Shown: positions 2-55,199, counted from the stretch's first letter. The stretch is 64,000 bases of DNA from Minisyncoccota bacterium (GCA_021734945.1 JAIPIA010000001.1:308415-372414), one strand, 5' to 3'. Notes: a model not told the origin generated them from the letters alone. Made by a program: numbers and translations.

Positions 2-850
2 CCATGTTCGAATATTTTGGTTGTATTTCTTCCTTCTCTCAATGATGTAAGTAAACTCGTTACAGAAATTGTACCCTTCAAACCAGATAGTCTCGAAACA
101 TACGATGATAAAAGTATGATTTTGGCTGTACGATTCTTCTTTGATTTCTTTAAACAACTTGGTTTTTGGGGTGCTATCAAGCTTGGATTACAGTTTATTC
201 CTGAAACATGGATGATTATGATTGGTGGAGTTCCGAAACTTATTCTCATGATTGAATTTACTGGTGAAAATGAAGCTGATGTAAAAAGAAAATTGATGGA
301 AGTAGAACAGCAGATAAAGCACTTTGGTTTCCATATGCACATTGCACATTCAAGTGCTGAGGCAAATAAGTATTGGAAAATTAGACATGAGAGTTTCAAC
401 CTTCTTCGAAAGCATGTAAAAAACAAGAGAACTGCGCCCTTTATCGATGACATTATTGTTAAGCCTGAGTATTTACCTGAATTTTTACCAAAAGTAAAAG
501 CTTTACTTGATGAATATAAACTCGACTATACAGTTCAAGGCCATCTTGGAAATGGAAACTTCCACATCATTCCACTTATGGATCTCAACTCCCCTTTCTC
601 TGCCGATATTATTCTCGAGCTTTCTGCAAAGGTATATACACTTGTAAATGAATATCACGGTTCAATAACAGCTGAGCATAATGATGGAATTATTCGAACA
701 CCATATCTCTTGCAACAATACGGTCAAAACATTGTTAATCTTTTCCAAAAAACAAAAGAGACGTTTGACCCGCAAAACATTTTCAATCCAGGTAAAAAGG
801 TTGGCGGTACGTTCCAGAATATTAAGGATGCTATAAAGAAGAAGAATTAG
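2..850 (+). CDS. FAD-linked oxidase, C-terminal domain (GlcD / D-lactate dehydrogenase family); 5' end lies before the window
   Basis: The ORF is open from the window edge. The C-terminal block (GSITAEHNDG ... FDPQNIFNPGK) is typical of the FAD-oxidase C-terminal domain. Confidence 0.55.
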   Translation, partial: PCSNILVVFLPSLNDVSKLVTEIVPFKPDSLETYDDKSMILAVRFFFDFFKQLGFWGAIKLGLQFIPETWMIMIGGVPKLILMIEFTGENEADVKRKLMEVEQQIKHFGFHMHIAHSSAEANKYWKIRHESFNLLRKHVKNKRTAPFIDDIIVKPEYLPEFLPKVKALLDEYKLDYTVQGHLGNGNFHIIPLMDLNSPFSADIILELSAKVYTLVNEYHGSITAEHNDGIIRTPYLLQQYGQNIVNLFQKTKETFDPQNIFNPGKKVGGTFQNIKDAIKKKN

Positions 851-947: not shown

Positions 948-1475
948 TCAAACTTTAAAGCCAATCTTATTCTTTGGCTTTTTATCCTCTTTTATAAGTA
1001 AGCGAATTACTCGGAAAATTTCTCTAAAATTTGTTTCATTATTCTTTTCCATTTCCTCGACTTTTTCACGGAGCTCTTTGTAGGTATCAACCATTCTTCG
1101 TAGTTTTGTAAATATACGTATTATCTGGATATTGATTTGAATGGCACGTTGACTATTTAAGACACTTGAAAGCATTGCAATTCCCTGTTCTGTGAAAGCT
1201 AGAGGCTCAATTCTAAGCCCTAATTTTAACCTTGAATTGGAGGTCACAAATTGTGACCTCCAATTATCTAGTTCCTCCTTGGTAAATTTAAACATAAAAT
1301 CATCTGGAAATCTTTCAATATTTCTTTTAACAGACTGTTTTAACACCTTAGTAGATGTTCCATATAGGACAGCAAGATCCATATCTAACATCACCTTACC
1401 ACCTCTTATTAAGTAAATCCTTTCTTTAATCGTCTCTATATCTATTGCCGTTTCGATTTGTTTTTCTTTTTCCAT
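948..1475 (-). CDS. ORF6N-domain protein (phage antirepressor/KilA-N-like DNA-binding family)
   Basis: N-terminal segment IRGGKVMLDMDLAVLYGTSTKVLKQSVKRN..FPDDFMF..T..E matches the ORF6N domain pattern. It is the last gene of the minus-strand cluster. Confidence 0.55.
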   Translation of the reverse strand: MEKEKQIETAIDIETIKERIYLIRGGKVMLDMDLAVLYGTSTKVLKQSVKRNIERFPDDFMFKFTKEELDNWRSQFVTSNSRLKLGLRIEPLAFTEQGIAMLSSVLNSQRAIQINIQIIRIFTKLRRMVDTYKELREKVEEMEKNNETNFREIFRVIRLLIKEDKKPKNKIGFKV

Positions 1476-1552
1476 TTTCAGATACTAGCAAAAGTTCCCT
1501 TAAGGAATCTTAAAGAAATTATAAAGAACATTCCAATAATTTATTATTGCTC

Positions 1553-2197
1553 TTACATCTCATACCCTTCAAGCTCCTTAGCAACCTGCTCAACTTTTTT
1601 AATGTCAATTTCATTTAGAGAGATATTACACACTTCCTGAATCTGCTTTTCCAGCACTAGAGCAAGCTGTTTTTTCTTTTCAGTTTTTTCTACATCAGCA
1701 AGCGCGTGCTGACTACCCGCATATCTTCGAATAACCTCATCAAATCGCTCTTCCACAGATACAATTCCTGTAGGAGCAACTCTAAAATCTGAATACGAAC
1801 AAAGTTTTATATACAAATCATCTAAATCTACCGTCAGGTGAAGTCTTGAACTACCAATATTCTCTAGAATATATAGTACTTTTTCAGGAACATTCAATTC
1901 ATGAGCAATTGCCATTGTGACCGTATGTTCGTTATCTCCATATGATTTGATAAATTCCTCAACTCTTCGCAATTCCTTTCTCTCTTCTTCTGTATATAAA
2001 ACATCGTTTGCAATTGGAGACTTAATAATATTGCCCATATCATGAAGCAACATGGCTTTTGTAACTAAATCTATATCTAGTTGAATCTCATGTTTTAATG
2101 ATTGAACAAGAATTCGTGCAACTGCAGCCACGCGATACATGTGATTTCTGAGGACACTTGGTATCTGATATTTTGCGTATATTTCGGAGGTTTTCAT
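1553..2197 (-). CDS. HD-domain phosphohydrolase (YfbR-like)
   Basis: HD motif LLHDMGN with an upstream H (RNHMYRVAAVARIL). It starts 5 bp after the upstream gene stop, so it is probably operonic. Confidence 0.6.
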   Translation of the reverse strand: MKTSEIYAKYQIPSVLRNHMYRVAAVARILVQSLKHEIQLDIDLVTKAMLLHDMGNIIKSPIANDVLYTEEERKELRRVEEFIKSYGDNEHTVTMAIAHELNVPEKVLYILENIGSSRLHLTVDLDDLYIKLCSYSDFRVAPTGIVSVEERFDEVIRRYAGSQHALADVEKTEKKKQLALVLEKQIQEVCNISLNEIDIKKVEQVAKELEGYEM

Positions 2198-2202
2198 GGG
2201 TT

Positions 2203-2745
2203 TTAATTAAATTTGAAAAACTTTTTAACACTCCAGACTTCATTCTCAAATTTCATTAAAGCTATATTATCAAAAAATGATTCAAAATGTTGTAATTCTT
2301 TCGTTTGTAAATATGCAAATATTTCATCTGACTGACTCTGATTCATATGTCGAGCAATAGATATGTGAAATATCCGTTTTGCGAATTTTCTATCCTCATC
2401 AACTTCTCCCAGATCAGAAATACAGCCTTCAATAGTTTTCTCAAATATTGAGCCTCCTTCAACTTTCATGAAAATTGTCTCAAAACTGTTTTCAAAACGA
2501 TTAAAACCACTAATAATAAAAGGTGCAATACTCGTTTTTCTTAGACTAAAATCATTAACAACAGATTGAATTTTTGACTCAATTTCCATAGTATCATCAA
2601 CTTCAAAGGGATACTTTAAAGTAATATGAGCAGGAACTCTTTTTGATAAATTGGAAATACCAAACTGAGCACTCAATTCTTCTGTTAGTTTTTGGAAATA
2701 TTTTTGAACTTCCTCGTTTGCTATATAGGCGATACAGTGTCTCAT
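2203..2745 (-). CDS. 2H phosphoesterase superfamily protein (LigT / 2'-5' RNA ligase / cyclic phosphodiesterase-like)
   Basis: Two H-x-T/S motifs (AHITLKYPF and HISIARH) at the spacing typical of 2H enzymes. Confidence 0.6.
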   Translation of the reverse strand: MRHCIAYIANEEVQKYFQKLTEELSAQFGISNLSKRVPAHITLKYPFEVDDTMEIESKIQSVVNDFSLRKTSIAPFIISGFNRFENSFETIFMKVEGGSIFEKTIEGCISDLGEVDEDRKFAKRIFHISIARHMNQSQSDEIFAYLQTKELQHFESFFDNIALMKFENEVWSVKKFFKFN

Positions 2746-2754
2746 ATTGCTGGA

Positions 2755-3324
2755 CTAATTATACAAATTAATCTTCCTCAACATCAACTCTGGCTTCCCT
2801 GCATTCTGTTCTTCACCTAGGCTAATACCGAGAGTTTTAATAAAGTTTCTAATTCCCTCTTTTACTTCGAGCACTTTATCATCTGATACTTGTTCGAGTT
2901 TTTCTACTTCTAAAAATAATCCAAGGTCTTTAACATCTTCGAGAACTATTTCATATACATCAGTGAGGTACGTGTATTTTGTATTATCAATTCTAACCAG
3001 CTCTTCAAAGCCTAAATGTTGTTGAATTTGCAAAGCGGTGTCGAAGTTATCTATTCCTGTTTCGTATTCGTCTGAGTATGTCCAATTCATTGAGTCATCG
3101 AAGTGATCTACTTTGTAAGCAACTGTGGCTTTGCCGTCTTTAAGTCTGAATCGATAGCAGTTGGTTAGGCGACCGCTTTCGTCAGGTCGAAGTTCTGTTC
3201 GAAGCGGATTATTAAAATATACATCGAGTGTCTCTTTGGCACCCTTGAATTCAAATTGACCAAGGAGTTTTAAGGCTTCTTCTTTAGTGTTTTTTACTTC
3301 AATGAGGATTTCAATTTCTTTCAT
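2755..3324 (-). CDS. CYTH-domain protein (triphosphate tunnel metalloenzyme / class IV adenylyl cyclase-like)
   Basis: N-terminal EIEILIEV (the ExExK-like motif) and an acidic LEVE/EVEKLE C-terminal motif. Size ~190 aa is typical of CyaB/CYTH. Confidence 0.55.
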   Translation of the reverse strand: MKEIEILIEVKNTKEEALKLLGQFEFKGAKETLDVYFNNPLRTELRPDESGRLTNCYRFRLKDGKATVAYKVDHFDDSMNWTYSDEYETGIDNFDTALQIQQHLGFEELVRIDNTKYTYLTDVYEIVLEDVKDLGLFLEVEKLEQVSDDKVLEVKEGIRNFIKTLGISLGEEQNAGKPELMLRKINLYN

Positions 3325-3365
3325 TGGAATATTTTATATCTTATCATCTAAAAGTCTTTACACAG

Positions 3366-4751
3366 CTAATCTTTTAAAAAATAATTATTTATTTCATTAA
3401 AAATTTCTATAATTCTCGCTTCATATTTCGTTTTTATATTTTTACCACTGGTATCAATTAATCCACTGACACCGTCTCTATGTTTAACTTCAGGTTTATC
3501 TCTAATATCGTTAGTGGGGATACATACAAAATTATATTTAGGAAATTCCTTACTGAGCGAACATGCTAAACTAGACATATTATTATCTAGTATGGATGTA
3601 ATTTTTTTAAAACCTAAATCTTCAAGCATTTTAATTACTTTTCGTGTATTTGGGGCACCTCCAACGCCCCACCCATAAAATACTCCATTAGTCTGAATTT
3701 GTTTTATTTCAAGAATCTTATTTAAAAAGACAACGTCTTCTTGTCCTTCTGTTAAGATTATATTATCTTCAAGAAAGAAAATTTCACTAGCATCCAAACC
3801 GAGAATATGTGGATTATTTAAGTTATCTAAAAAAGGAGTAATATCATTAGTGGTTTTTTCTTCTAATTGATAAATTTTTGTTCCAGAAGTCTCTTTAACT
3901 GTTCTTGCAATTCGTCCACCGTTTAAAATTGAAGGCCAACTGACAAAAAAAGGAGAATGAGTAGAGATTATGATTTGTCTATCTTTTGAATATTCTAAAA
4001 GTAATTTTAATAATTTTCTTTGGAGTGACGGATGTAACGACAACTCTGGCTCGTCAATAAATATTAAGTCTTCAGATCGACTATCATACAAAGCATCAAC
4101 AATTGTAAAAACACTCAATAATCCTTCTCCGGCCCCGTCGCTATTATGAGAAGAATTATCATTAATAAACTTTAAATAATAATTTCCATTATCTGCCTGA
4201 TCAATGTTCCAGTTCGGAGAGTATCCTAAAACTTTACTCAATTCCGAATTAAAAGTTGTTGGATCTTTTTGGATTTGGAAAAGTCTATGTGAAAAATTAT
4301 CAAACTGTGAACCTCTAACTGCTTGTAGATTTGAAGTGCTAATATATTGGTTACGATCATAAATACTTTTACCAAAAAATGGGCTGAATGTTCTTCTTGA
4401 TGGTAAAGTTAAGAATTTTACTTTCTCTTTTTCAAGTTTATTTGAAATATACTCTGTTTCGCTTCCTCCATTAGATGTTGTTTTAAGAGTTAAGCTATTA
4501 TCGTCTATGTCGAAAATTGATATTTCAATTTTATCACCAGCTATTTTATTTCTTTTACCTTCCGTAAAGCTCGGGGTTTGATTTTGGGATATAGCTCTGA
4601 ATGCCTCATAAATTGTTGATTTACCGGAGTTATTAGGGCCAACAATAACTGTCAATCCACTACCATTATTTCCATTTTTTGGTACAGCAATATTTAACGT
4701 TTGCTTTTCATTAAAACCTCTTAAGCCTAAAATTTCTATTTTTTTGTACAT
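3366..4751 (-). CDS. OLD-family ATP-dependent endonuclease-like protein (N-terminal ABC-type ATPase + C-terminal Toprim-like region; GajA/OLD-like)
   Basis: Walker A GPNNSGKST, Walker B/D-loop LIFIDEPELSLHP, H-loop ISTHSP, then an acidic ILTEGQEDVVFL Toprim-like segment. The likely start is MYKKIEIL (4751); the longest ORF reaches 4787. Confidence 0.6.
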   Translation of the reverse strand: MYKKIEILGLRGFNEKQTLNIAVPKNGNNGSGLTVIVGPNNSGKSTIYEAFRAISQNQTPSFTEGKRNKIAGDKIEISIFDIDDNSLTLKTTSNGGSETEYISNKLEKEKVKFLTLPSRRTFSPFFGKSIYDRNQYISTSNLQAVRGSQFDNFSHRLFQIQKDPTTFNSELSKVLGYSPNWNIDQADNGNYYLKFINDNSSHNSDGAGEGLLSVFTIVDALYDSRSEDLIFIDEPELSLHPSLQRKLLKLLLEYSKDRQIIISTHSPFFVSWPSILNGGRIARTVKETSGTKIYQLEEKTTNDITPFLDNLNNPHILGLDASEIFFLEDNIILTEGQEDVVFLNKILEIKQIQTNGVFYGWGVGGAPNTRKVIKMLEDLGFKKITSILDNNMSSLACSLSKEFPKYNFVCIPTNDIRDKPEVKHRDGVSGLIDTSGKNIKTKYEARIIEIFNEINNYFLKD

Positions 4752-4803
4752 AGCGTATACAACGAGCGTACGAGTCCTATGTAGCATTCGTACTAGCTCT
4801 TGT

Positions 4804-4904
4804 TGGTTGCGGAGATGGGATTTGAACCCATATCTTTTCCTTTCGAAAAGCTCTAAATAAAAGCTCTTTGAAAGAGAAAGGTGCTACCATTACACCACTC
4901 CGCA
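4804..4904 (-). tRNA. Atypical 101-nt tRNA-like gene (canonical acceptor, D and T arms, encoded CCA; best register gives anticodon UUC with ~31 nt where the variable arm belongs)
   Basis: Acceptor TGCGGAG/CTCCGCA, T-arm ATGGG-TTCAAAT-CCCAT, D-arm GTGT..GCAC. The anticodon arm TTTCT-CTTTCAA-AGAGC closes with only about 4 pairs. There is an internal 9-nt direct duplication AGAGCTTTT. Confidence 0.45.
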
Positions 4905-5186
4905 ATATATATGTTATACCTCAACAGCTCCTCTCAGTCCATCGATATAAAACTAGCTGGCGGGCCCACTCGTCCTCGGTCGTTACACGACCAGTATAGC
5001 TTTTGGATATTCTGTTCGTCTCGCTGGCTGCCCTATTTTCAATACCCGCAGTATACACCCGAAAGTGCCTCAACTCCAGAATATATTCAAAAGCTTTTCT
5101 CCTCCTCGCCGAAAGCGCCCCACGCTTTCTTGGTCCATTTCTGGAGCTAAAAAACCACCCAATAAATTGGATGGTTTTTTGCTCTG

Positions 5187-5258
5187 CGGGCCCACGAGGA
5201 CTCGAACCTCGAACTGCGCGTTTGGAGTGCGATGTTTTACCATTGAAACTATGGACCC
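5187..5258 (-). tRNA. tRNA-Trp (anticodon CCA) with an imperfect anticodon stem
   Basis: Acceptor GGGTCCA/TGGGCCC, D-stem GTTT/AAAC, T-arm CGAGG-TTCGAGT-CCTCG, anticodon loop CTCCAAA. The anticodon stem has 3 central pairs plus 2 terminal mismatches. An intrinsic terminator follows at 5150-5186. Confidence 0.55.
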
Positions 5259-5379
5259 GTGCTAGCTATACTAATCTAAAACGGCTTAAAACTCAATCTC
5301 CCTCGGGAAGTGCGAGCTTTAAATACCCTACTTCGTTCTATACCCACCTCCCCTCAAAATCTGCTAATATAGAGAAATT

Positions 5380-6534
5380 ATGAAAATCACAAAAATAGAC
5401 AAAAGTAGATTACCAGAAGTAGACCTCAACAACCTCCCATTTGGAAAGGTTATGAGTGACCACATGGCAATTTGTTATTACAAAGATGGTGCATGGCAGG
5501 AACCTGAAATCGTCCCTTATGCAAACCTATCTCTATCTCCTTCTACTTCTGCTCTCCATTATGGTCAGGCTGTTTTTGAAGGAATGTCCGCGTATCGAGA
5601 TACATCGTCCTCAAGCGCCACGAATGGCACAAATGATTCGACTGCAAACGCCGCAAACAGTACAGGCGACTCAAACGAAGCAACAAACGAACCTACCGCT
5701 GTACTCTTTCGTATTCGTGACAATGCCACACGAATTTCAAAATCTCTCAAGCGACTCATGATGCCAGAAATACCAGTTGAGCTTTTTGAAAATTGTCTCA
5801 TCGAACTTATTAAGCTTGATAAGAAATGGATTCCTGAAAAGCCCGGTTCATATCTCTACATTCGTCCTTTTGTGTTTGCGACTGACGAATATGTTGGTGT
5901 AAAACCATCTTCAGAATATACATTTATAATTTTCTCTGCACCTACTGGCCCTTATTACTCAAAGAAACTCAAAGTAAAAGTTGAACAAACATATACACGA
6001 GCCGCTCCTGGTGGAGTTGGTGCTGCAAAAGCGGCTGGAAACTACGCAGCTGCAATGCTCGCAACTGCTGAGGCTCAGAAAGAAGGCTTTGATCAAATCG
6101 TATGGACTGATTCACAGACACATGAATATATCGAAGAATCTGGAACAATGAATATCTTTTGTGTTATTGATGGCGTTGTTATTACTCCAAAAACTACAGA
6201 CACTATTCTCGCTGGTATTACTCGAGATTCAGTATGTACAGTTTGCAAAGAACTCAACATCCCTATCGAAGAGCGAAAGATTTCTGTAGCTGAACTCAAG
6301 AGTGCAATGGAAAAAGGAACTCTACAGGGTATGTTTGGAACTGGTACAGCCGTAACACTCATAGAAATCGAATCTGTGACTATTGGCGACCTAACATACA
6401 CACTCCCTGACCTAACAAAAACTCCTGACGGTAAAGGTGGTTTTATTGGTGAATTCTACAAACCCGCACTCGACAAGCTTCGAGCTATCAAAGCTGGTGC
6501 TGACAACAAGTATGGATGGACTACGAAGGTTTAG
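5380..6534 (+). CDS. ilvE: Branched-chain amino acid aminotransferase
   Basis: Conserved class-IV aminotransferase blocks (HYGQAVFEG, YLYIRPF, AAKAAGNYAAAM, GITRD, GTGTA). It carries a ~35-aa S/T/N-rich low-complexity insertion. Confidence 0.8.
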   Translation: MKITKIDKSRLPEVDLNNLPFGKVMSDHMAICYYKDGAWQEPEIVPYANLSLSPSTSALHYGQAVFEGMSAYRDTSSSSATNGTNDSTANAANSTGDSNEATNEPTAVLFRIRDNATRISKSLKRLMMPEIPVELFENCLIELIKLDKKWIPEKPGSYLYIRPFVFATDEYVGVKPSSEYTFIIFSAPTGPYYSKKLKVKVEQTYTRAAPGGVGAAKAAGNYAAAMLATAEAQKEGFDQIVWTDSQTHEYIEESGTMNIFCVIDGVVITPKTTDTILAGITRDSVCTVCKELNIPIEERKISVAELKSAMEKGTLQGMFGTGTAVTLIEIESVTIGDLTYTLPDLTKTPDGKGGFIGEFYKPALDKLRAIKAGADNKYGWTTKV

Positions 6535-6643: not shown

Positions 6644-7477
6644 CTACACCAAATCAAGCACCTGCGGGTTTTTCAACCTTATTAGTGCTGGCAATTCAGT
6701 CAGTTCTTCTCCAGGTGGCTGCCAGAGATTGAACTTAGCGAATCTTTGATTTGAACCGACGTCGATTTGAAGCGTATGGGCGCCATATTTTTCACGAAGA
6801 AAATGACCAGCGGATAGATATGCAGGGCCGTCCTCGTCGTAAAAAAGACGTCTGTGTGCAGTATCATCATCAGTATGCATCACCTTAGCAAAGAATGGTT
6901 TAAGGACTTTAAACAATTCATCAGGATCGTTGAATGGCAAATCCGAGCGACCTTTAAAATCCTCACTCTTGAGTAAACAACGACCTGTTTCGATCATGCG
7001 TTGCCACTTCTGAATCAACTCAGCACCGACCAGCTTTTCAGCTTTAAAGTTTGGAGGTAAATCAGGATTCCTGGTAAATACTCTCTGAATTTCGCATACT
7101 GACTGACTCATGCACGCTTGTGCTTTCTCAAGCGGAATATCCAGGAACCCAACGCTCTCTTGGTCAAAGAGCAAAGACCTGAAGTGGACTTTTGAGTGGT
7201 AACGAATATTTTTGCGAAGAAACTTTTTAAGCATCACAAACAGATTAATAGAGCGCTGCGCTGTTAAGCTCACGCCCGACAAAAGCTGTTTACAATCCTC
7301 ACTGTACTGAGGACAGACAATGACGGCGACAGAAAATTCTCCCGTCGCATCGTAGTGAGATACTGCACGCCAGAGTATTTCGATGATATATTCATTGTCT
7401 TCGTGTGTTGCAACGATTTGTGTAAAGAACTTATGGAGCATGCTCCCGAGTGGATGTTCGAGCAATTTACTTTTCAT
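6644..7477 (-). CDS. Hypothetical protein with no family recognised; noticeably higher GC than its neighbours
   Basis: Long ORF whose composition departs from the surrounding genes. Confidence 0.45.
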   Translation of the reverse strand: MKSKLLEHPLGSMLHKFFTQIVATHEDNEYIIEILWRAVSHYDATGEFSVAVIVCPQYSEDCKQLLSGVSLTAQRSINLFVMLKKFLRKNIRYHSKVHFRSLLFDQESVGFLDIPLEKAQACMSQSVCEIQRVFTRNPDLPPNFKAEKLVGAELIQKWQRMIETGRCLLKSEDFKGRSDLPFNDPDELFKVLKPFFAKVMHTDDDTAHRRLFYDEDGPAYLSAGHFLREKYGAHTLQIDVGSNQRFAKFNLWQPPGEELTELPALIRLKNPQVLDLV

Positions 7478-7648: not shown

Positions 7649-9142
7649 TTAAGTCGTTAGATTGTTCCAAAATCGATTTGTAAAATTGAGCGCTTTAACT
7701 ACATGTTTTTCTGTAAAATTCTCATTCACACCGTGCATATTACAGTCATCATTACAGAGTGAAACCATCGCCATGGGCACCTTGAATATACTCTGAAAAT
7801 CAGCCACTACAGGTATAGATGCACCAATGGATTTGCATATAACTTCCCTTCCATATACGTCAGTAAGCAATGTTTTAACACTACTCAAAGCCTCGTGATC
7901 AGTATCAAGTCTAATAGCCTCACCGTGATCTTCAAATTCTACAGAAACATCTACGTGTGAAGGAGTATTTAGTCGCACAAAATTGGAAATAGATTTGATT
8001 ACCTCACTCGTTTTCTGTGGGTGCACAGTTCTAACATTGAGTCTTACTTCAGCTTTTCCTGGAATAATATTTTTAAATCCTTGCCCTACATATCCACCAG
8101 AAAATCCTGACACCTCGATCGTCGGATATAGCCCTATTTGCTCGTGAGCAGAAAGATTTTTCATAGTGGTAAGTGTTTTAACATCTGCGAGCTTTTGCAC
8201 ATTTTGAACATTAGAAATCTTCTGGTGTTGAGTTCTAGCTTCTTCAGACGGTTCAATCATTCCAGTATAAAATTCTCCAAAACTAATTGCATTTTCAGAT
8301 TTAATTTTAGATACAAGTGTCGCAAGTTCAAGCACTGCGTTTGGAATAGCACCACCATATAGACCTGAGTGTCTGTCGTTGCTAGATGTTGTATATGTCA
8401 CCTTCATATTTCCTCCACCTCTGTATGACATATCGAGAGTTGGATGTTCACCTACTATTTCACCATCGGATATGATAATAAAATCAGGTGCAAGTTCTTT
8501 TTTATTTTCCTTAAGAAGTTTAGCCAAATCCTCATTTCCAGACTCTTCATTTCCTTCAATAACAAAAGTTACGTTCGTAGTAAGTGCCCCGTTTTTAATA
8601 GCATTAAACACACCAACCATATGAGCTAGTATCTGCCCCTTATTATCAACCACACCTCTCGCTACAAGTCTGTCGCCTTTCTTTGTGAGTACAAATGGGT
8701 CAGTACTCCATCCATCAGATTTCTGCGCAGGTTGAACATCGTAGTGGCCGTAGACAAGAATATTTTTTGGTGACGCTGAAGTTTTTGCGGATGCGGCAGT
8801 TTTTGTGGAATTTACACTCGCATTTTTTTCAGCATTATTCTTTGTACTTTTAAGAGCGTTTTTAAGAGCATACTGGGCGACAACGACAGGATTAGTACTT
8901 TTACCTTTGAGAAGTTTCACTTTGAAACCATTTTCTTTAAAAATTTGAGTCAACCAATTCACAGCCTTTTTCATTTCATCTTTGTAAGTAAGGTCTGTTG
9001 AAACAGTCTTAAAAGCCACAAATTCTTTTAAAAGATTCATGTATTCTTTTTGTAAATTCTGTACCGCCAAAATTTGAGACTTACCCTGCGCAGTTTTTTG
9101 ATTTGAATCTCCCCCTTTTGATATGTTTGCTATTTTTTTCAT
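7649..9142 (-). CDS. M20-family metallopeptidase (dipeptidase/ArgE/DapE-like)
   Basis: Motifs YGHYDVQP, GWSTDPF and RGVVDNKG; size ~500 aa. It carries an N/S/T/K-rich low-complexity insert. Confidence 0.7.
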   Translation of the reverse strand: MKKIANISKGGDSNQKTAQGKSQILAVQNLQKEYMNLLKEFVAFKTVSTDLTYKDEMKKAVNWLTQIFKENGFKVKLLKGKSTNPVVVAQYALKNALKSTKNNAEKNASVNSTKTAASAKTSASPKNILVYGHYDVQPAQKSDGWSTDPFVLTKKGDRLVARGVVDNKGQILAHMVGVFNAIKNGALTTNVTFVIEGNEESGNEDLAKLLKENKKELAPDFIIISDGEIVGEHPTLDMSYRGGGNMKVTYTTSSNDRHSGLYGGAIPNAVLELATLVSKIKSENAISFGEFYTGMIEPSEEARTQHQKISNVQNVQKLADVKTLTTMKNLSAHEQIGLYPTIEVSGFSGGYVGQGFKNIIPGKAEVRLNVRTVHPQKTSEVIKSISNFVRLNTPSHVDVSVEFEDHGEAIRLDTDHEALSSVKTLLTDVYGREVICKSIGASIPVVADFQSIFKVPMAMVSLCNDDCNMHGVNENFTEKHVVKALNFTNRFWNNLTT

Positions 9143-9324
9143 TGTAATAAATTATAACTTACTTTTAGTAACCCTAACGTTTGATTGATTAAGTGCGAAT
9201 CAAGACGTTGTATTAAAAGGCTTATGAGAGGATTGAACTCTGCGATAAACCACCTGCGTGTGCAACAGTTTGTCTGAACAAACATTACATGTGCAGGATT
9301 TTTTCCTTCGACTCATGACGCACC

Positions 9325-54940: not shown

Positions 54941-55012
54941 GGCCCTATCGTCTATCGGTTAGGACATCGCCTTTTCAAGGCGAGAAGCGGAGTTCGACTC
55001 TCCGTAGGGTCA
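54941..55012 (+). tRNA. tRNA-Glu (TTC)
   Basis: Acceptor GGCCCTA/TAGGGTC, anticodon arm TCGCC-TTTTCAA-GGCGA, T-arm CGGAG-TTCGACT-CTCCG. Confidence 0.8.
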
Positions 55013-55199
55013 CAGGTCAAAATAAAGACACGTCGTAAGGCGTGTTTTTATTTTGCACCCTCGTGGAACTAAGCAAGCCAACTGCTTGGCTTGCGTCGGA
55101 GAGTCGAAAAGGTTCTCCCATATTTTCGAGAAATGAGCAAAACAATCCAATGGTGCGAATTTTGAGAAAATGGGAAACCTGCACTGGTCCTGTAAGGAC

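Follow-up and report, generated by a model that had tools for sequence, protein, structure and literature searches.

The subject of this analysis is a cluster of five co-directional open reading frames (ORFs) on the minus strand of a 64,000-nucleotide stretch of DNA, referred to below as the window, from a 'Candidatus Pacebacteria bacterium' metagenome-assembled genome (MAG; GCA_021734945.1, JAIPIA010000001.1:308415-372414), which belongs to a tiny-genome lineage. The five genes encode an ORF6N-domain protein, an HD hydrolase, a 2H phosphoesterase, a CYTH protein and an OLD-family protein, and are separated, from the ORF6N side to the OLD side, by 77, 5, 9 and 41 bp. These gaps are exactly those given in an earlier reading made from the sequence alone (the sequence-only reading), which had interpreted the genes as one nucleotide depletion-and-sensing defence module. 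Its five domain calls were upheld by Pfam, NCBIfam and PADLOC. The two adjacent tRNA genes that it named were both found by Rfam (4807-4904, abnormal; 5187-5258, tRNA-Trp), and synteny confirmed the tRNA-linked location as a variable region. The features of the locus are listed below in window coordinates.

17-850, plus strand: 3' part of an FAD-linked oxidase gene, a backbone gene convergent with the cluster (Pfam FAD-oxidase_C, 5.8e-45).
851-1552, no strand: 702-bp insertion bearing the ORF6N gene (blastn and sequence comparison with the relative L090).
892-920, no strand: perfect 29-bp palindrome ATTGGAAGTGCCAA-A-TTGGCACTTCCAAT, 28 nt past the ORF6N stop codon.
948-1475, minus strand: ORF6N-domain protein, 175 aa (Pfam ORF6N, 3.2e-32; PADLOC PDC-S05, 7e-55).
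1553-2197, minus strand: HD-domain phosphohydrolase, 214 aa, a backbone gene of the lineage (Pfam HD, 32 bits against a cut-off of 22).
2203-2745, minus strand: 2H phosphoesterase, YjcG/LigT-like, 180 aa (PF13563, 2.4e-15; GC 29.7%, GC at third codon positions (GC3) 20%).
2755-3324, minus strand: CYTH/triphosphate-tunnel protein, CyaB-like, 189 aa (PF01928, 3.8e-12; TIGR00318, 72 bits).
3366-4751 (ORF to 4787), minus strand: predicted OLD-family ABC ATPase and Toprim nuclease, 461 aa (GC 30.2%, GC3 19%).
4807-4904, minus strand: tRNA-Glu(UUC)-like gene with a 27-nt insertion (Rfam tRNA, 56.7 bits; ARAGORN -i; minimum free energy fold).
4960-5185, minus strand: 226-nt conserved non-coding unit at the tRNA-Trp 3' end, closing with a partial direct repeat of that end (4960-4978).
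5186-5258 (Rfam 5187-5258), minus strand: tRNA-Trp(CCA), which anchors the variable region (syntenic in L091 and L095).

We consider it likely that this cluster is a mosaic at a tRNA-linked hot spot, made up of a stand-alone OLD gene, a separate ORF6N insertion and CYTH, 2H and HD genes of housekeeping type. The interpretation is carried by the identities of the genes, the lack of conserved linkage among them, the boundaries of the insertions and the synteny of the hot spot. In all, 268 loci were fetched for comparison (given below with L numbers), including 80 CYTH loci from genomes, 80 2H loci from metagenomes, 90 loci with an OLD-profile match and 8 HD loci. The CYTH loci were fetched with 8-kb flanks and came from the Candidate Phyla Radiation (CPR), DPANN archaea, gut Bacilli and Alphaproteobacteria. 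Linkage was scanned with tblastn and, because tblastn alone might overlook divergent partners, again with rebuilt profile hidden Markov models (HMMs) for OLD, CYTH, 2H and HD against the six-frame ORFs of the 268 loci. The second scan gained only one CYTH-2H pair (L063) and three weak HD matches. Co-localisation of the genes was not conserved in any of the 268 loci, and the proposal of a single defence module was not borne out. The gene-neighbourhood comparison that the sequence-only reading had suggested as a check returned a solo OLD gene, and profile and structure-database matches placed the hydrolases in housekeeping-type families. This is the outcome that the sequence-only reading itself had named as speaking against its proposal.

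Comparison with relatives of the HD gene revealed how the locus is built. A very close relative, L090 (FAD oxidase 97% identical in amino acids and 94.7% in nucleotides; HD 92.5% and 90.6%, respectively), has the order PPDK, a nucleotidyltransferase gene (CTP_transf_like), HD and the convergent FAD oxidase gene, and thus possesses HD without 2H, CYTH, OLD or ORF6N. Upstream of HD, the homology between L090 and the window breaks at 2209, 12 bp ahead of the HD start codon, and the slot of 2H-CYTH-OLD is held by the two unrelated genes PPDK and CTP_transf_like. On the other side, about 20 bp lie between HD and the oxidase gene at the place where the window has 851-1552. Since HD abuts the oxidase gene in L090, the ORF6N gene with its flanks represents a 702-bp insertion. 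Positions 1-71 of L090, upstream of PPDK, match window 5252-5322, just 5' of tRNA-Trp, in the opposite orientation relative to HD, which indicates a local inversion or rearrangement between these two very close relatives. In the more distant loci L091-L097 (HD 81-86% identical) the backbone reads ClpB, tRNA-Tyr, further genes, tRNA-Trp, variable part, HD, NUDIX, further genes, miaA. The variable part contains an Imm26-like gene in one set of these loci and HAD, hypothetical, NTP_transf_2 and hypothetical genes in the other. HD was located at the inner edge of the variable interval in the relatives examined and would be the ancestral gene of the cluster, a backbone gene at that edge.

The 226-nt unit is delimited by a repeat of the tRNA-Trp 3' end of about 18 nt (4960-4978 and 5186-5204). 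It is absent from L091 and present twice in L095 (4560-4785 and 6146-6386), where each copy precedes a different cargo, and its core is approximately 88-89% identical between genomes, exceeding the adjacent coding sequence. The unit gave no Rfam match; at a permissive threshold, Rfam yielded only the two tRNAs in 4700-5400. The consensus fold was drawn from three near-identical copies, which offer no testable covariation. The unit may be an arm of a tRNA-Trp-targeting islet family, or a non-coding RNA. One trailer, ...AGAGCTAG..., is shared: L091 and L095 have it after their tRNA-Trp repeats, and the window has it after the tRNA-Glu-like gene. A similar trailer, ...GTGCTAGCATGA, is found past the tRNA-Gln fragment upstream of the OLD gene in L004, the locus of the closest OLD relative. 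The window's own tRNA-Trp repeat keeps CAGCTAG only. Judged from these sequence comparisons, tRNA-Trp and HD enclose an insertion hot spot, which is bounded by tRNA 3'-end repeats and was filled piecemeal, and the five-gene 'operon' would be a mosaic assembled there in several steps. The composition of the genes agrees with such a piecemeal history: GC3 is 19-20% in OLD and 2H, against 27-33% in CYTH, HD and most larger genes of the window; taken by themselves, most of the larger genes have 27-31%.

The start of the OLD protein is most likely M13 (4751), which gives 461 aa and agrees with the NCBI protein (P0001) and with all homologues. Pfam matched AAA_21 (9e-26) and AAA_15 (8e-24), whereas OLD-like_TOPRIM reached 18.4 bits, under its cut-off of 23.2. 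The PADLOC Old model covers residues 236-394, and the AriA, GajA and ATPase-Toprim_I-B models all match the protein. The Walker A, Walker B/D-loop, H-loop and acidic motifs quoted in the earlier reading (GPNNSGKST, IDEPELSLHP, THSP and EGQEDV) are present and conserved among 44 homologues. The ABC residues proper, namely G38-x4-G43-K44-S/T of Walker A, D233-E234-P-E of Walker B/D-loop and H265 of the H-loop, are invariant in all 44. An AlphaFold2 model built from the homologue alignment (pLDDT 88.5) showed a C-terminal domain of four strand-helix units at 331-410, the Toprim fold. Searching the Protein Data Bank (PDB) with this model by Foldseek revealed the class 1 OLD nuclease of Thermus scotoductus (TsOLD, 6P74) as the best full-length match (E 1.4e-15) and best solved structure, followed by SMC and Rad50 heads and then by GajA and by retron-associated OLD and PtuA proteins. 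The ABC motifs, the modelled fold and this match supported the assignment as an OLD-type ATPase/Toprim protein.

The sequence identity to 6P74 is 17%. A phmmer alignment pairs residues 228-341 with 6P74 residues 271-383, and places E335 and D339 on TsOLD E377 and D381. The two-metal set of OLD nucleases consists of a Glu and a DxD for metal A, an acidic residue at Glu+4 and S/T-x-E/D for metal B, and a conserved Arg/Lys (PMC7049728). In the family of the window protein E335, D339, D389 and R417 are invariant in 44 homologues and D415 is conserved in 43; the DxD of metal A reads DxN (here D389-x-N391) in 39 of the 44 and DxD in five. The remaining ligands and the residue resembling a catalytic base may be supplied by T413-x-D415 and the invariant R417, the equivalence past E335/D339 being drawn from motif order and not from superposition. 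Sequence and predicted structure place the protein in the OLD family, among those of class 1 type, with an altered metal site.

The OLD protein has more than 1600 homologues. Identity is 50-80% for the best 120, whose named members are mostly from Bacteroidota. In 15 full-length contexts the gene was solo, and clustering of the neighbours within 3 kb revealed no recurrent partner, the commonest neighbour being an IS91-like transposase (3 of 15 loci). The same was observed in six independent neighbourhoods labelled with Pfam (L001, L002/L003, L004, L005-L008, L009 and L262). The neighbours there were IS91-type transposase/integrase pairs, a tRNA-Ser-integrated element with RteC, ParDE and a TIR protein, and co-directional small-gene arrays including AbiTii-TIR, ORF6N, HNH and SLFN. 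No CYTH, 2H, HD, helicase or reverse transcriptase (RT) gene stood beside OLD in L001, L002, L004, L005, L009 or L262, and the rebuilt HMMs detected CYTH, 2H or HD in none of the 90 loci with an OLD-profile match. Seven relatives, full-length or nearly so, were found on viral contigs of IMG/VR. The relative that comes closest (L004, 80% identity) is carried by an independent contig of 33% GC, and its nucleotide homology to the window comprises the OLD coding sequence only, ending 5 nt ahead of the ATG and 4 nt past the stop codon.

The arrays form a group of their own. OLD homologues occur in L005 (1-7625), L006-L008 and L009 (1-9783) among co-directional small genes with spacers of 150-300 bp, which share recurring motifs, for example CGTTGCCTGC...GCAGGCAAC. 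In sequence layout this resembles an integron-like cassette organisation; canonical attC core sites were not recognised by eye in the L005/L009 spacers. Contigs of 1.55 kb holding just the OLD gene turned up in several samples.

The OLD gene of the window would have come in by horizontal transfer, as a unit of one gene placed directly downstream of a tRNA-like gene of foreign appearance, and its product most likely acts alone, as class 1 OLD nucleases do. Class 1 OLD nucleases nick or degrade DNA in the case of TsOLD (PMC7049728); a class 1 OLD defends Vibrio cholerae (PMC12392090), and P2 OLD cleaves tRNA anticodon stems, with phage tRNAs rescuing the cells (PMC12445682). By analogy, an ATP-driven ABC ATPase would control a Toprim nuclease with two metals, which on phage infection would cut DNA or the anticodon stems of tRNAs and thereby abort the infection. 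It is from these relatives that we infer the nuclease activity and the defence role of the window protein.

The ORF6N protein matched PF10543 (3.2e-32) and the PHROG anti-repressor family (2e-28). The PADLOC PDC-S05 model (PDLC04856, E 7e-55) aligned almost end to end, residues 8-173 pairing with model positions 4-175 of 177. One PDC-S05 member conferred about 1000-fold protection of E. coli against T7 and T5, according to a preprint. The gene would be an independent insertion of PDC-S05 type between HD and the convergent oxidase gene, and its product probably binds DNA and serves, as the product of a single gene, in phage interference or regulation; it is similar to phage anti-repressors. The 'perfect bidirectional terminator' that had been claimed at 893-919 proved to be a perfect palindrome of 29 bp at 892-920, whereas its role as a terminator was not supported: it lacks a T-run and the terminator scan made no call. 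A second, related perfect palindrome at 1235-1265 lies inside the ORF6N coding sequence and encodes NWRSQFVTSN. The two share outer ATTGGA...TCCAAT arms and a central CAA-A-TTG, and they represent two of the five perfect palindromes (arms of at least 11 nt) in the 64-kb window, both within the 702-bp insertion. The same palindrome, again in frame, occurs in a viral ORF6N gene (L268, 6757-6787), which also has an ATTGGAG-CAA-CTCCAAT hairpin past its stop codon (about 7210-7226). Such palindromes may be an operator or a recombination site of ORF6N proteins.

The three remaining genes encode small hydrolases. The CYTH protein scored 46.8 bits with PF01928 (cut-off 23.2; 3.8e-12) and 72 bits with TIGR00318 cyaB (cut-off 57.95). 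At E <= 1e-5 it has 458 homologues, of which the best 120 show 55-78% identity; where these are named, they are mostly CPR. Named relatives come from CPR, DPANN archaea, gut Bacilli and Alphaproteobacteria. The protein is highly conserved, its mean column identity being 68%. The best PDB match is SaTTM (7ns8, Saci_0718; 2.7e-13), class IV cyclases following at about 3e-5. In the N-terminus MKEIEILIEVK, residues K2, E3, E5 and L7 are invariant in 28 homologues and K14 is nearly so; the canonical CYTH ExExK motif has Lys where this subfamily shows the invariant Leu (L7). With tblastn, no relatives of 2H, HD, OLD or ORF6N were detected near CYTH in the 80 genome loci, and a 77%-identical CYTH relative is flanked by CTP synthase and a kinase-like gene. 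Weak HD matches lie 2-3 kb from CYTH in three gut Bacilli/Mycoplasma-like loci.

The 2H protein matched PF13563 (2_5_RNA_ligase2, 2.4e-15), has H40-x-T42 and H127-x-S129 invariant in 21 homologues, and is nearest in the PDB to B. subtilis YjcG (2d4g). The family is sparse: the best cluster representative is 47% identical, and 314 matches at E < 1e-3 were obtained in 1.84 billion representatives. A single-sequence scan for the metagenome loci found no relative and was repeated with an alignment from the representative-library search; none of the 80 loci obtained had relatives of the window CYTH, HD, OLD or ORF6N near 2H. The HD protein (PF01966, 32 bits against a cut-off of 22, 1.7e-7) contains the LLHDMGN motif and belongs to a family of 48 members, the named ones from Pacebacteria/Paceibacterota MAGs. 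Its nearest PDB entries are 1xx7 and HDDC2, which we take to be YfbR-like nucleotidases, and its relatives L090-L097 adjoin FAD oxidase or NUDIX/miaA. In the PADLOC run, OLD (Old/AriA/GajA models) and ORF6N (PDC-S05) were recognised, whereas CYTH and 2H found no match in the PADLOC or PHROG libraries and HD found only one marginal Cas3-HD match (E 0.0097). By family membership, CYTH, 2H and HD are thus assigned to housekeeping-type families (CyaB/SaTTM-like, YjcG-like and YfbR/HDDC2-like, respectively), and the neighbours of their relatives elsewhere, CTP synthase, a kinase-like gene, NUDIX and miaA among them, are housekeeping genes. CYTH and 2H would be small phosphohydrolases whose families occur chiefly in organisms with tiny genomes, here probably co-transcribed with HD, and the likeliest role of the three is nucleotide or RNA-end housekeeping (triphosphate hydrolysis, cyclic/2',3'-phosphate hydrolysis, 5'-nucleotidase). 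As with the other cluster proteins, we infer these biochemical activities from the families.

A refinement compatible with the mosaic interpretation would treat CYTH-2H-HD as one small, co-transcribed operon with housekeeping duties in nucleotide or RNA-end metabolism, in which the members cooperate with one another and not with OLD, for example in triphosphate or cyclic-phosphate turnover followed by nucleotidase action. The gaps of 9 and 5 bp favour it and make co-transcription of the three genes plausible. The gene upstream of HD in L090 is another one and also ends 5 bp ahead of HD; this suggests expression of HD together with any gene that precedes it. CYTH-2H adjacency in L063, HD_3-2H adjacency in L101 and the NUDIX gene following the HD relatives, with miaA and His_Phos further on, point in the same direction. 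However, adjacency was seen in just one of the 80 CYTH and one of the 80 2H loci, each time with a different subfamily, and the close relatives of each gene occur without the others. Cooperation among the three is therefore possible, though we would not expect it.

Several points weigh against the mosaic interpretation. The variable interval contains OLD, CYTH and 2H alike, and the three could have arrived together. Many of the comparison contigs are short, CPR genomes near this one are thinly sampled, and only one relative contig is more than 90% identical. The spacing of OLD-CYTH-2H-HD (5-41 bp) and a terminator scan that found no hairpin of terminator type inside the cluster agree with co-transcription, so that a freshly assembled functional operon is, judged by sequence, conceivable, if very unlikely. 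Promoter-like matches were at chance level (29 found, 26 expected) and were not used for operon boundaries. The DxN motif in 39 of 44 family members means that nuclease activity of the OLD protein is not assured. Moreover, L063, a CPR MAG contig, repeats the CYTH-2H order of the window: at its positions 7986-9284 a 2H gene comes directly after a CYTH gene of 46% identity. This was the one case with an adjacent 2H gene in the profile scan of 80 CYTH loci, the 2H gene being of another subfamily; by our own estimate, chance would produce about 0.2 such adjacencies per 80 genomes. In L101 (1352-2565), a YfbR-like HD_3 gene stands immediately upstream of a frameshifted 2H gene 54% identical to that of the window. 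This HD_3 is not detectably related to the window HD by BLASTP and was therefore not counted as conserved linkage. The two pairs make some functional coupling of the small hydrolases possible.

In the proposal of the sequence-only reading, OLD together with CYTH, 2H and HD, with or without ORF6N, would form one abortive-infection system, in which the hydrolases deplete or process nucleotides and thereby switch on a nucleotide-inhibited nuclease. The tight co-directional spacing without a detected internal terminator, the joint presence of OLD, CYTH and 2H in the variable interval and the position of the hydrolases between two defence-type genes would fit such a system. Nevertheless, the linkage is conserved in none of the fetched loci, the homology with the closest OLD relative is restricted to coding sequence, HD is a backbone gene that occurs without the others, and ORF6N is a separate insertion. 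CYTH resembles the window's other genes in composition and OLD and 2H do not, and the defence and phage libraries returned nothing for CYTH and 2H and the marginal Cas3-HD match for HD. We regard a single system as very unlikely.

The tRNA-Glu-like gene raises an alternative of a different kind. Default ARAGORN detects tRNA-Trp only and overlooks it. The 27-nt insertion is located in the anticodon loop at about 37/38, and the predicted fold replaces the anticodon stem-loop with a rod of approximately 18 bp. From bacteria, just group I and group II tRNA introns are known, none of them at 37/38 (PMC13011429). The gene encodes its CCA and has 41% GC, against 54-63% in the other tRNAs of the window, and a normal tRNA-Glu(UUC) is present at 54941-55013. 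Over its 3' 28 nt, the acceptor and T arm, it matches tRNA-Met genes of five phage tRNA arrays in IMG/VR without a difference, probably because both have the acceptor and T arm of initiator type; no exact match of its 5' half was found in viral contigs. A search for att-type repeats of its 3' end on the borders of OLD found none, and the one repeat that turned up was that of the tRNA-Trp 3' end at 4960-4978.

By analogy with tRNA-cleaving OLD proteins, this gene and OLD might constitute a two-part module in which the rod-armed RNA serves as decoy, as regulator or sensor ligand, or as cleavage-resistant substitute for a tRNA-cleaving OLD, and CYTH and 2H might process the resulting RNA ends. 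In favour of such a pair, the gene is compositionally foreign and shares its strand with OLD, of which it lies 55 nt upstream; the OLD copy of L004, the closest relative, likewise stands 27 nt behind a tRNA gene; and P2 OLD cleaves anticodon stems, with rescue by phage tRNAs (PMC12445682). On the other hand, OLD has no tRNA next to it in any of the other 13 full-length loci, and the tRNA of L004 is an ordinary tRNA-Gln. Both tRNAs precede ...GCTAG-containing trailers, as found after the tRNA-Trp attachment repeats, and these shared trailers fit tRNA-targeted integration better than functional pairing. Although such a pair would, if true, be a tRNA-mimic-regulated OLD system in a CPR bacterium, we think it improbable to the same high degree as the single system. 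Finally, a chimera of assembly or binning that joined Bacteroidota DNA (OLD) to a CPR contig, as the mostly Bacteroidota names of the OLD homologues and the outlying composition of the gene might suggest, is scarcely credible in view of lineage-typical sequence on both sides (the tRNA-Trp unit common to L095; CYTH with mostly CPR named relatives), a source contig spanning 383 kb and the 80%-identical OLD copy that is also located behind a tRNA on an independent 33%-GC contig.

Elsewhere in the window, a 277-aa ORF without a Pfam match (6644-7477, minus strand), between aminotransferase and M20 peptidase genes, has a high GC content for the window (43.6%, GC3 44%).

Returning to the mosaic interpretation, its significance is that it removes a tempting false lead: close spacing and suggestive domain names do not make a system when the genes differ in distribution and history. 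The analysis also documents a compact OLD subfamily (about 460 aa), whose Toprim motif is DxN and which is widespread among Bacteroidota, mobile elements and prophages, together with its transfer into a Pacebacteria genome; to our knowledge, few defence genes have been characterised in such organisms. Moreover, a PDC-S05-type ORF6N gene was seen arriving as a clean 702-bp insertion, and a hot spot anchored at tRNA-Trp, with its 226-nt unit and an odd tRNA-like gene, was defined that could be mined for mobile cargo of CPR bacteria.

Comparison with known systems places the OLD protein nearest to the class 1 OLD proteins (P2 Old, 6P74, Vibrio cholerae OLD and E. coli YbjD). As in these, an ABC ATPase at the N-terminus is joined to a Toprim domain at the C-terminus, with 6P74 as the best match in structure; both the Glu that binds metal and the acidic residue at +4 are kept, and a single gene without conserved partner has relatives on prophages and mobile elements. 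The window protein differs in being shorter (461 aa, whereas the 6P74 chain as deposited has 528 aa and class 1 OLD proteins have 520-590 aa), in its sub-threshold Pfam Toprim score, in the DxN of most subfamily members and in its 17% identity to 6P74. Its copy is furthermore located in a CPR genome, directly ahead of three hydrolase genes. Gabija, PARIS and retron type I-B share homologous ATPase and Toprim parts, and GajA and retron Eco8 are among the top fold matches. However, the partner genes of Gabija, class 2 OLD and PARIS are absent, as the sequence-only reading had noted. No GajB/UvrD helicase lies beside OLD in the window (CYTH downstream, tRNA upstream) or in the relatives, and neither there nor here does a separate AriB, an RT gene or a retron ncRNA adjoin it; AriA and AriB are separate in PARIS, whereas ATPase and Toprim are fused here in one 461-aa protein; and for retron type I-B (class 3 OLD), the cluster and its flanks contain no RT ORF and Rfam finds tRNAs only.

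The CYTH protein passes the TIGR00318 cut-off and is comparable to CyaB-like CYTH/triphosphate tunnel metalloenzymes (SaTTM 7ns8, PH1819 and the Yersinia class IV adenylate cyclase), from which it differs by the motif K-E-I-E-I-L; its sequence is compatible with either cyclase or triphosphatase activity. With YjcG/LigT-type 2H and YfbR/HDDC2-type HD proteins the window proteins share both intact HxT/S motifs and the HD motif, respectively, but they represent distant, small subfamilies. The ORF6N protein resembles PDC-S05 in its full-length HMM match, its ORF6N domain and its behaviour as a single-gene insertion; by contrast, the member assayed in the preprint was described with a Virulence_RhuM domain. 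Taken together, the cluster is best described as known in kind: a class 1-type OLD nuclease near a PDC-S05-type gene in a tRNA-linked variable region.

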